9,269 bases of DNA, from the IMG/VR virus record IMGVR_UViG_2718217789_000012. One strand, given 5' to 3'. Positions 7,185-8,049 of the stretch are shown one piece after another. Source of the stretch: a virus. Lineage: Duplodnaviria; Heunggongvirae; Uroviricota; Caudoviricetes. The notes under the pieces were generated by a model. It made no database searches. It had not been told where the DNA came from and saw only the letters and a list, made by a program, of their open reading frames with translations. The translations under genes and the position numbers were made by a program. Numbering within the stretch: position 1 is the stretch's first letter; every line of letters begins with the position of its first letter.

Positions 7185-7219
7185 AAAAAAACGTCCTCGA
7201 ACGTTGCCGAACGAGGACG
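7185..7219 (-). terminator. Rho-independent terminator-like hairpin for the int/257-aa transcript, ending immediately 5' of the alpA start codon
   Basis: 8-bp GC-rich stem CGTCCTCG (7192-7199) / CGAGGACG (7212-7219) with a 12-nt loop. On the minus strand it is followed by a T7 run (plus-strand A-run 7185-7191) that abuts the alpA ATG at 7184. Confidence 0.5.
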
Positions 7220-7246
7220 ATTCTAGGCGGTAGTAAAACGCCGTTT

Positions 7247-7279
7247 GTGTGATATCACACTACCAGCACGTGATATCAC
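7247..7279. promoter_or_regulatory. Two palindromic sites sharing the core GTGATATCAC (GTGTGATATCACAC at 7247-7260 and GTGATATCAC at 7270-7279), centres 21 bp apart; putative operator
   Basis: Both are perfect palindromes read directly from the sequence. The spacing is two helical turns. The second overlaps the stop codon of the 257-aa ORF. They lie between that ORF and the terminator/alpA start. Confidence 0.4.
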
Positions 7280-8049
7280 TTTTTACGTTTTTGTTGAGAT
7301 TCACGCCCCAAATACTTTTGCCATGTCTGCCAATGTGTTTTTGGAAATTCTATCCCTCTGGATGCAGCTATAGAATCAATTAAATCTGCTATTTTAGGTA
7401 ATGATTCCGTGTCCAGGTCTACATCACCCATTTCTGGAATAAGTTTAATTAAAGAGTAAATAACCTCATTCCTTTTTGACGATGCTTTTGGGCTATCTTC
7501 TGTTATCTTCGGGAAGTCTCCCGTATTTTTTATATTATCTAAATCACTAGCCATCACACACAAATAGTTAACATCAAATTCATAACCACCCTTACAAAAA
7601 ACATACATGAGATTATCATCACCATACTTATTCGTAAGATGAGAACATTTTATATATTGTCTCATGCTAAATTCGACATCAGCAAAAACATATGCCGGAG
7701 TATAATAAAACCCTGATAAGCTGCTAACATAATAACATTTGATAGAATTCCCTACAGGACCAATAATGGCACTATCTAAAAATTCAGTGTCACCAGTTAA
7801 ACCAACTGTAAAATTACTTCCAAAAACAGCAGATTCATCATTGAAAGGATATTTTATTAATTCTTCCTCATTACAACCATTGATAAAATGACATAATGAA
7901 AAATTGAATTTTTTAGCATCAATTTTTGGTATATATACAGAAATATTAAGAGCACCTATATATGCGTAATGATAAAGATCTTTTATTGCACAGCCTAACT
8001 TTTCTGCCGCTTCAGGTAACGGATAATAGAGTCTTTTAGGTAATTTCAT
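7276..8049 (-). CDS. Hypothetical 257-aa protein, AT-rich cargo gene translationally coupled to int; N-terminal excisionase/AlpA-like HTH-like segment, remainder unassigned
   Basis: The start ATG overlaps the int stop in an ATGA arrangement (plus-strand tcat at 8046-8049). The ORF is uninterrupted for 774 bp. Its DNA is visibly much more AT-rich than the flanking int and alpA (estimated about one-third GC versus about one-half). Residues LPEAAEKLGCAIKDLYHYAYIGAL resemble an excisionase-type helix-turn-helix; the basic C-terminus ends QQKRKK. I recognise no family for the remaining ~200 aa. Confidence 0.7.
   Translation of the reverse strand: MKLPKRLYYPLPEAAEKLGCAIKDLYHYAYIGALNISVYIPKIDAKKFNFSLCHFINGCNEEELIKYPFNDESAVFGSNFTVGLTGDTEFLDSAIIGPVGNSIKCYYVSSLSGFYYTPAYVFADVEFSMRQYIKCSHLTNKYGDDNLMYVFCKGGYEFDVNYLCVMASDLDNIKNTGDFPKITEDSPKASSKRNEVIYSLIKLIPEMGDVDLDTESLPKIADLIDSIAASRGIEFPKTHWQTWQKYLGRESQQKRKK

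Follow-up and report, generated by a model that had tools for sequence, protein, structure and literature searches.

The window analyzed here is a 9,269-nt stretch of viral DNA (IMG/VR record IMGVR_UViG_2718217789_000012) that corresponds to a ~9-kb phage-inducible chromosomal island (PICI), a phage satellite of Escherichia coli. Chromosomes of many Shiga-toxin-producing E. coli (O157:H7, O145:H28, O103:H2, and O121) contain DNA that matches it with 100% identity, and the island is flanked there by clpS and cspD. The gene order is int, a gene for a 257-aa protein referred to here as X, alpA, a gene for a YlcI/YnfO ribbon-helix-helix (RHH) protein, an icd-like gene, a DUF4222 gene, a gene for a D5-type primase, terS, and a gene for a capsid-fold protein; the backbone genes are on the minus strand with the exception of the plus-strand RHH gene. 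The conserved order of int, alpA, replication, and packaging genes, the size of ~9 kb, which is within the ~9-15 kb of the type, and the location at a chromosomal attachment (att) site assign the element to the Gram-negative PICIs of the EcCICFT073 type, in which AlpA is the master activator (PMC6092414). The alpA genes of EcCICFT073 (PMC6092414) and EcCIMP1 (PMC11773190) each have their own promoter region, are auto-activated, and are induced by helper phage, in the case of EcCICFT073 by lambda and phi80 (PMC6092414), and unchecked AlpA harms the cell (PMC6092414, PMC11773190). Here, we focused on the short interval between X and alpA, which contains the following features together with the flanking genes.

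8046..9269, minus strand: int, tyrosine integrase (PF00589 and PF13356), first gene of the int-X operon
7276..8049, minus strand: X, 257-aa protein without family assignment, proposed binder of the twin palindromes
7270..7279, no strand: palindrome site 1, GTGATATCAC, promoter-distal, containing the X stop codon TGA (7278..7276)
7248..7259, no strand: palindrome site 2, GTGATATCAC core (7249-7258) extended to TGTGATATCACA, promoter-proximal
7220..7225, minus strand: TAGAAT, candidate −10 hexamer of a putative alpA promoter, with the best −10 score in the interval by position weight matrix (PWM)
7192..7219, minus strand: RNA hairpin with 5' arm 7219..7212, loop 7211..7200, and 3' arm 7199..7192
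7194..7198, minus strand: alpA Shine-Dalgarno (SD) sequence GAGGA, part of the 3' arm and 9 nt upstream of the start codon
7185..7191, minus strand: T7 run, at once U-tract of the terminator and SD-to-ATG spacer
6960..7184, minus strand: alpA, 74 aa, PF05930 (Pfam, 3.4e-16)

On the minus strand, the interval reads AAG TGA TATCAC gtgctggtagt GTGATATCAC acaaacggcgttttactaccgcc TAGAAT CGTCCTCG ttcggcaacgtt CGAGGACG TTTTTTT ATG, and the alpA ATG (7184..7182) abuts the T7 run. An earlier sequence-only reading of this region had described a minus-strand hairpin with a T7 tail that ends at the alpA ATG, and twin palindromes 21 bp apart, one of which overlaps the stop codon of the 257-aa open reading frame (ORF). 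Both descriptions can be read directly from the DNA, at 7219..7192, 7191..7185, and 7184 for the hairpin, the T run, and the start codon, and at 7249-7258, 7270-7279, and 7278..7276 for the palindromes and the TGA. The same reading stated that alpA lacks an obvious SD sequence, which is wrong, as GAGGA is present at 7198..7194. The hairpin consists of an 8-bp stem, a 2 x 2 internal loop, two further pairs, and a GCAA loop, and has a folding free energy (ΔG) of −17.0 kcal/mol when folded alone; a 121-nt region folds with −40.2 kcal/mol (z = −4.74). A consensus terminator scan did not report the hairpin, for the sole reason that the scan allows loops of up to 8 nt and the outer loop has 12. Single perfect 10-bp palindromes occur in the window at chance level (8 versus ~10 expected). 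An identical palindrome pair within 30 bp was obtained in 0.7% of first-order Markov simulations, and the GTGATATCAC motif is found nowhere else in the window even with one mismatch (0.18 matches expected). The two palindromes (here also dyads) are 21 bp apart from start to start.

Satellites of Escherichia, Salmonella, Klebsiella, and Providencia and from metagenomes have the module int-X-[~90 nt]-alpA in common, and further lineages were added by scanning IMG/VR with a pattern and with a profile; related loci are cited below by L-numbers. An AlpA-based search for related loci in genome contigs returned four matches, all distant and irrelevant. The X gene lies directly upstream of alpA in 12 of the 12 homologues with fetched loci, with a gap of mostly ~90 nt (54-96 nt), and directly follows int wherever upstream DNA is annotated. 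The int stop codon and the X start codon overlap as ATGA in the window, and gene tables list a 4-nt overlap for most related loci (8 nt in L023/L024, a 2-nt gap in L031). A 191-nt control region has matches in 116 of 5,426 complete genomes, of which 66 hold at least 80% of the region. Across lineages the interval follows one plan: two dyads, a non-conserved spacer of 22-23 nt, a hexamer rich in A/T, a hairpin whose loop has 12 nt, and the ATG, with the remaining sequence saturated with changes.

The hairpin is conserved as a structure. In a 14-lineage alignment, 90.9% of the cells of an 11-bp helix were paired, compared with 31-49% when the 3' partners were slid. Compensatory changes were present in 9 of the 11 pairs (6 of 8 in the 8-bp core), and the observed covariation score was reached by none of 500 shuffles. 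Arm pairs include CGTCCTCG/CGAGGACG, GCTCCTG/CAGGAGC, ACCCTTG/CAAGGGT, and CCACCTG/CAGGTGG, and the hairpin has a ΔG of −9 to −17 kcal/mol in every lineage; in the loop, C at position 3 and AA at positions 7-8 are conserved. Pairs of the G.U type, including one generated by a C-to-T polymorphism in E. coli elements bearing DUF6387, fit only the alpA-sense strand and, therefore, the selected object is an RNA stem in alpA-sense transcripts. Searches of Rfam gave no match at gathering thresholds and only chance-level matches below them.

All related lineages have an SD-like run (GAGG, AGGAG, or AAGGG) at this position of the 3' arm. In the window, GAGGA is base-paired in a stable stem that is kept by compensatory evolution, as expected for a buried ribosome-binding site (RBS). 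The calculated probability that the SD sequence is unpaired is 0.000 in a read-through RNA and ~0.6 in an RNA beginning at 7211-7213. Loci in which a co-directional gene (X or, in L003, DUF6387) ends ~50-105 nt upstream of alpA have the hairpin; the cargo-less relatives L004 and L005 and EcCICFT073, in which int ends 365-420 nt before alpA, lack it.

In a set of sister elements (L003 3389-4243; L011-L020), the same alpA allele is preceded by DUF6387 instead of X in the slot between int and alpA. These elements, referred to as type B, keep the SD hairpin and a T5 run and lack the twin dyads, so that the slot behaves like an exchangeable cassette site. We also observed that in L021-L024, L027, and L035, alpA is followed by AntA, Bro-N, pRha, or ORF6N antirepressor-type genes and not by the RHH and icd-like genes. 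The cassette of X, dyads, hairpin, and alpA is thus common to satellites that differ in the regulatory module downstream of it.

Judged by sequence, the E. coli hairpin has all the attributes of an intrinsic terminator, as the sequence-only reading had recognized: in the window, an 8-bp GC-rich stem is followed by U7, and the plus strand has no T run after the stem. Termination in the window is, thus, predicted to be fully competent, by the look of its sequence. The U-tract is less widespread than the stem. A run of at least five T after the stem occurs only in E. coli, Salmonella, L036, L046, L082, and the type-B elements, while the Klebsiella, Providencia, L032, L033, and L034 lineages have 2-4 T in the 8 nt past the stem and have kept the hairpin. 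Because the SD sequence is always in the stem and the T run is lineage-specific, we conclude that the conserved function is sequestration of the RBS and that termination is a lineage-specific addition.

These observations bear on the proposal, made in the sequence-only reading, that the interval is an attenuation or antitermination checkpoint. In such a checkpoint, alpA would be expressed only by terminator read-through, and AlpA, X, or an N- or Q-type factor of the helper phage would suppress termination. The canonical terminator of the window (ΔG −17, U7, abutting the ATG) and an empty σ70 consensus scan of the interval fit this proposal, and the helper phages lambda and phi80 encode antiterminators. 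However, the U-tract is not conserved where the hairpin is, and the SD sequence would stay buried after read-through, so that antitermination alone would not yield AlpA. In addition, alignments of the non-conserved 22-23 nt upstream of the hairpin revealed neither a competing antiterminator or anti-sequestor pairing nor a conserved nut- or qut-like element, the PF05930 AlpA has no detectable sequence relation to the Q-like AlpA of Pseudomonas, and the PICIs that have been studied have alpA with its own inducible promoter region. Therefore, while the idea of conserved cis-regulatory features between the int-X operon and alpA stands, we consider a checkpoint of this type rather unlikely.

Pseudomonas aeruginosa AlpA, like the lambdoid Q proteins a processive antiterminator, shares with the window the AlpA name and a terminator downstream of a promoter-embedded binding element (PMC7969949, PMC9371919). 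It is a larger, Q-like protein of eight helices with DNA contacts at ~128-142, whereas AlpA of the window is a 74-aa winged-helix protein of family PF05930, the sole sequence match of which among solved structures is the excisionase 8c3t. Unlike in Q systems, we saw no binding element between −35 and −10 and no sigma-dependent pause element in the window. The Pseudomonas antiterminator was, therefore, rejected as a model for the AlpA of the window because it belongs to a different protein family.

The sequence-only reading had allowed for an initiation site that it could not see, and a candidate exists in the form of TAGAAT (7225..7220), which lies directly against the 5' arm. This hexamer has the best −10 PWM score of the interval in the window, L002, L023, and L027, and ranks among the top three in the Klebsiella-type loci and L036; the next-best score upstream of it in the window is 3.5 compared with 6.5. 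Equivalent hexamers (TACAAT, AATAAT, CAGAAT, and CAAAAT) are present 22-23 nt past site 2 in most lineages, TACAAT and AATAAT being, like TAGAAT, top −10 PWM hits, and the 7th or 8th nt downstream of the hexamer, at the end of the 5' arm, is always G or A. A start at ~7213/7212 would lie inside the stem and generate an mRNA without the 5' arm. Taken on its own, and judged from the sequence, we rate this start at a little under an even chance.

Three other ways of starting alpA expression were considered and rejected. A promoter formed by the dyads themselves, with −35 in site 1 and −10 in site 2, would have a 19-nt spacer and poor hexamers. Hexamers in the loop (AATAAT/GATAAT in the Klebsiella-type loci and L032) are absent in E. 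coli and would truncate the SD sequence. Finally, an in-frame ATG 12 codons before the alpA start (AAATGCTCC, hexamer plus arm) has no SD sequence and is absent in E. coli and Providencia; it is found in L025, L031-L033, L036, L046, L082, L092, L093, and L095, the frame being open in all but L076, and is probably a by-product of stem composition.

The same data can be read as a translational switch in the 5' untranslated region (5'-UTR), in which transcription would start ahead of the hairpin, in the dyads or close to them, the stem would be part of every alpA mRNA, and a trans-acting opener (for example, a small RNA of the helper phage or the satellite, an RNA-binding protein, or a nuclease cut) would be needed. 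In many lineages the helix reaches into the hexamer, giving 11-13 bp with the high level of pairing described above. Moreover, hexamers that come closer to a −10 element (TAGTAT, TAAATT) lie farther upstream in L097, L035, and L099, from which transcription would start before the stem, and the conserved loop bases could be a recognition site. On the other hand, we found no candidate opener or complementary sequence in the window and no −10-like hexamer upstream of TAGAAT comparable to it, and in E. coli the U7 tract would end a transcript of this kind ahead of alpA. We regard a switch of this type as unlikely.

In contrast to the hairpin, the dyads are conserved as sequences. Alignments (A2 and A3) show that they are invariant across genera in flanks and a spacer that are saturated with changes, which points to recognition by a conserved protein rather than base pairing. 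Each locus has exactly two dyads and none elsewhere, spaced by 20-22 bp from start to start (21 in most lineages), and site 2 is followed by the 22- to 23-nt spacer, which is fixed in length in most lineages. In L036, site 1 lies past the X stop codon with the spacing unchanged. Thus, the sites are dyad-symmetric, helically phased, and sequence-conserved, as expected for a pair of operators. The variants in class 1 fit GTGAWWTCAC. In Klebsiella, site 1 is GTGAATTCAC, in which a central TA-to-AT change preserves self-symmetry and abolishes complementarity to site 2 (GTGATATCCC); L093 has GTGAAATCAC and GTGAAATCGC, and L096 has GTGAAATCAC and GTGATTTCAC. The distal half of site 2 is degenerate in the Klebsiella group and in L093.

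Comparisons of presence, absence, and identity were used to ask which protein the dyads follow. L003 has an Int that is 96% identical to that of L002 and an AlpA that is 92% identical to that of the window, DUF6387 in place of X, and no dyads, and we looked for and found no twin dyads in the DUF6387-bearing type-B elements. The dyad sequence shifts with the X subfamily: more distant X-like proteins are encoded next to different twin palindromes that lie at the same place with the same 21-bp spacing. Both copies are GGAAATTTCC in L098, L099 combines GGAAATTTCC with GGACATTTCC and L100 TGGAATATTCCA with TGGAATATTCCG, and L097 has GGGAATTCCC and a degenerate copy; L100-L102 have two palindrome copies each. 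Accordingly, GTGAWWTCAC occurs with class 1 proteins, and GGAAATTTCC, GGGAATTCCC, and TGGAATATTCCA occur with divergent X-like proteins. Located where the X gene ends, 2 kb from the int promoter, the sites cannot serve in autoregulation of X, and alpA is the only nearby controllable gene. From these patterns, we infer that the dyads are putative operators that belong to X.

We weighed whether the dyads could instead be bound by AlpA in the course of auto-activation, the YlcI/YnfO RHH protein, Int, a host factor, or a regulator of the helper phage; the sequence-only reading had suggested AlpA and the RHH protein. AlpA does auto-activate its promoter in EcCICFT073, dyads of 8-10 bp are typical of RHH proteins, and arrays of a related palindrome precede an RHH-like gene in ~55-kb contigs (see below). 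Also, TATCAC/GTGATA resemble lambda operator half-sites. Yet the 92% identical AlpA of the dyad-less L003 has an identical recognition-helix region, the RHH gene is absent from the dyad-bearing L027, L029, L033, and L034, and Int differs little between L002, with dyads, and L003, without. On these grounds, AlpA, the RHH protein, and Int were rejected as the dyad binder; the palindromes follow the 257-aa gene and neither of the two proteins suggested earlier. Known site geometries fared no better. The dyad reads TGTGA-N2-TCACA and not N6 as in CRP sites, the spacing does not fit lambda operators or P2 Ogr sites (TGT-N12-ACA), and sequence reading and PWM found no −35/−10 pair at 19-20 bp around either dyad as in a MerR-type promoter. 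Binding by a protein other than X is, in our assessment, quite improbable.

Alternatively, the two dyads could act in RNA, the X message then carrying at its 3' end a hairpin with a 10-bp stem and a loop of 11 nt as a stabilizer or processing site. The copies can pair with each other, and in the minimum-free-energy fold no element upstream of the terminator is more stable than theirs; the sites GTGAAATCAC and GTGATTTCAC of L096 are exact reverse complements, and in L047 the same twin motif forms a terminator stem. Against this, the dyads are invariant, whereas the SD hairpin a few nucleotides away covaries freely, and both arms are palindromes in their own right, a property for which an RNA stem has no need. 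The Klebsiella loci and L093 have lost pairing between the sites and kept the GTGA..TC core, and the 21-bp spacing is kept with unrelated palindromes. We consider this explanation very improbable.

Palindromes with the same core were also noticed outside the satellites. In ~55-kb low-GC phage contigs (L037, L039-L045, and L048-L087, mostly from metagenome 3300045988), arrays of 4-8 TGATATCA / GTGATATCAC repeats lie just upstream of a gene that starts with MAETFNQMIRFPKDL and is RHH-like in look. The core palindrome would serve as an iterated operator in these contigs, which represent an unrelated system. In L047, a phage contig that is otherwise unrelated, twin GTGATATCAC copies separated by N11 and a T-rich run (2165-2195) form a terminator-like hairpin after a 294-aa ORF, which is ORF6N/antirepressor-like by inspection only.

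X falls into 19 homologue clusters, and those with names are from Enterobacterales. Its N-terminal 45 residues and its C-terminal 70 residues, which are helical, are conserved, and residues 45-185 are hypervariable and beta-rich (alignment A1). Whole-chain Foldseek and sequence profiles gave no match for X. The AlphaFold2 model (pLDDT 78) shows an N-terminal beta-alpha-alpha-beta winged helix that resembles those of AlpA, Xis, and MerR, i.e., a predicted DNA-binding fold of the AlpA/Xis type. By its conservation and the model, X would have the pattern of a sensor under diversifying selection.

Together, these data lead us to favor a model in which an insulator hairpin is combined with an alpA promoter operated by X, and we hold the core claims of this model to be slightly more probable than their negation. 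In the model, a transcript that reads through from int-X folds the hairpin, the SD sequence is buried, and alpA would not be translated; in E. coli and Salmonella, the int-X transcript would also end at the U-tract (U7). The hairpin would, in this way, insulate the master activator from the co-directional transcription of int-X. (AlpA-independent transcription of int has been shown only for EcCICFT073 [PMC6092414].) alpA itself would be expressed from its own weak, factor-dependent promoter, for which TAGAAT is the best candidate −10 element, and a start at ~7213/7212, at the 3' end of the 5' arm, would leave the SD sequence free. Relative to a start at 7212, the dyads would be centered at about −41.5 (site 2) and −62.5 (site 1), two helical turns apart, and X, acting on its operators as a repressor or an activator, would set or sense when alpA fires. 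An extended version, in which X represents a class of satellite sensor-regulators with a middle domain that reads a helper-phage protein and with an operator code of its own, acting on an insulator with its start inside the stem, appears doubtful to us at present. If it holds, X, made together with the integrase and acting on two phased operators, would be the link from the helper phage to alpA, and would be a functional counterpart of Stl with co-evolving operators (GTGAWWTCAC versus GGAAWWTTCC).

Several observations weigh against this model. For the promoter, there is no match to a −35 element upstream of TAGAAT, and the hexamer of the Klebsiella-type loci is only CAGAAT or CAAAAT. It is TTAAAT in L046, L080, and L082, which lacks the key A at position 2, and L097, L099, and L035 have no such hexamer and a geometry of 25 nt. 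Moreover, AAT of the hexamer usually pairs with AUU past the 3' arm (with the U-run in the window), and in L080 all six bases are paired, so that conservation of the hexamer may reflect an extension of the stem rather than a promoter. For the operators, a 10-bp dyad is short for a winged-helix dimer, and P0019-type proteins have a similar N-terminal domain and other palindromes; the reverse-complementary sites of L096 and the terminator stem of L047 leave a small probability for a role of the twin motif at the RNA level. Homologous elements that lack X control alpA by other means. Finally, the reference strains EDL933 and Sakai were not among the 60 best-matching of the 116 genome records with the control region.

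The proposed arrangement can be compared with known systems. IS10/Tn10 is said to protect itself from outside transcription, as reportedly described by Davis, Simons, and Kleckner in 1985, and the same is said of IS200, reportedly by Beuzon et al. in 1999. The own promoter of IS10 starts inside the inverted repeat, so that its own mRNA escapes the stem. For insertion sequence (IS) elements in general, protection from outside transcription and 5' terminators have been described (PMC2965389). As in IS10 and IS200, a mobile element would here shield a dangerous gene by means of a stem that buries the RBS and/or a 5' terminator. The differences are that a master activator would be protected and not a transposase, that the incoming transcription would come from the int-X operon of the element itself, and that a single hairpin would be an SD trap that doubles as terminator in some of the lineages, the internal start being a prediction.

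EcCICFT073 and EcCIMP1 share with the window the backbone order of int, alpA, divergent YlcI/YnfO RHH gene, icd-like gene, DUF4222, and primase, and differ from it in having a 365- to 430-nt spacer between int and alpA without X, twin dyads, or a hairpin at the ATG. In the EcCICFT073 spacer (L089 7170-7250), int is followed by a run of (G)AACAAC / GACACAAC repeats and alpA is preceded by repeats rich in CACAA; these repeats are possible regulator sites of PalpA and entirely unlike the X cassette. By analogy to Stl, the helper-sensed repressor of the Gram-positive PICIs of Staphylococcus aureus (SaPIs), a satellite DNA-binding protein (X, as predicted) encoded beside int would gate the lytic program, and the hypervariable part of X would be the expected product of an arms race with phage inducers. 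Stl has no relation to X in sequence or fold beyond a helix-turn-helix. If alpA starts at 7212, the dyads at −41.5/−62.5, on the same face and without a −35 element, would resemble the sites of class I/II activators (CRP, FNR, and lambda cI at PRM), although these positions depend on the candidate start and the sequence is not that of a CRP or FNR site.

How helper phages turn on alpA was left open in the founding paper (PMC6092414), and we found no answer in that paper or in PMC11773190, PMC9371919, PMC2965389, and PMC13181058. Literature searches returned no description of the X/dyad cassette, and it is absent from EcCICFT073 and EcCIMP1, the PICIs studied experimentally, for which reporter data exist. 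We consider the X regulator family to be the new component, while the hairpin and the operator pair are known kinds of control. The interval would provide a compact and conserved way to silence alpA ~90 nt past a co-directional operon, in an element that is carried by many Shiga-toxin-producing E. coli. X is a specific and testable candidate regulator with defined putative operators, and the X/operator pairs that co-vary between subfamilies offer ready-made specificity swaps. If X were mere cargo and the dyads incidental, an ordinary terminator combined with an SD trap would remain.

Two further features of the window lie downstream of the alpA start. Between the convergent RHH gene and alpA, a terminator-like hairpin on the plus strand (6914-6933, GGCGACC..GGTCGCC) is followed by TTTGTTTT; there is no comparable T run on the alpA strand, and the 3' end of the alpA transcript is, therefore, not obvious. 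Three direct copies of a motif (GTGCATCGCAC / GTGAATCGCAC / CTGAATCGCAC) are located at 6534-6544, 6569-6579, and 6614-6624, with a spacing of 35 and 45 bp, in the region from which the icd-like operon and the YlcI/YnfO RHH gene diverge. AlpA and the RHH protein are candidates for binding them, and the GTG..CAC ends of the copies are reminiscent of the dyads before alpA.

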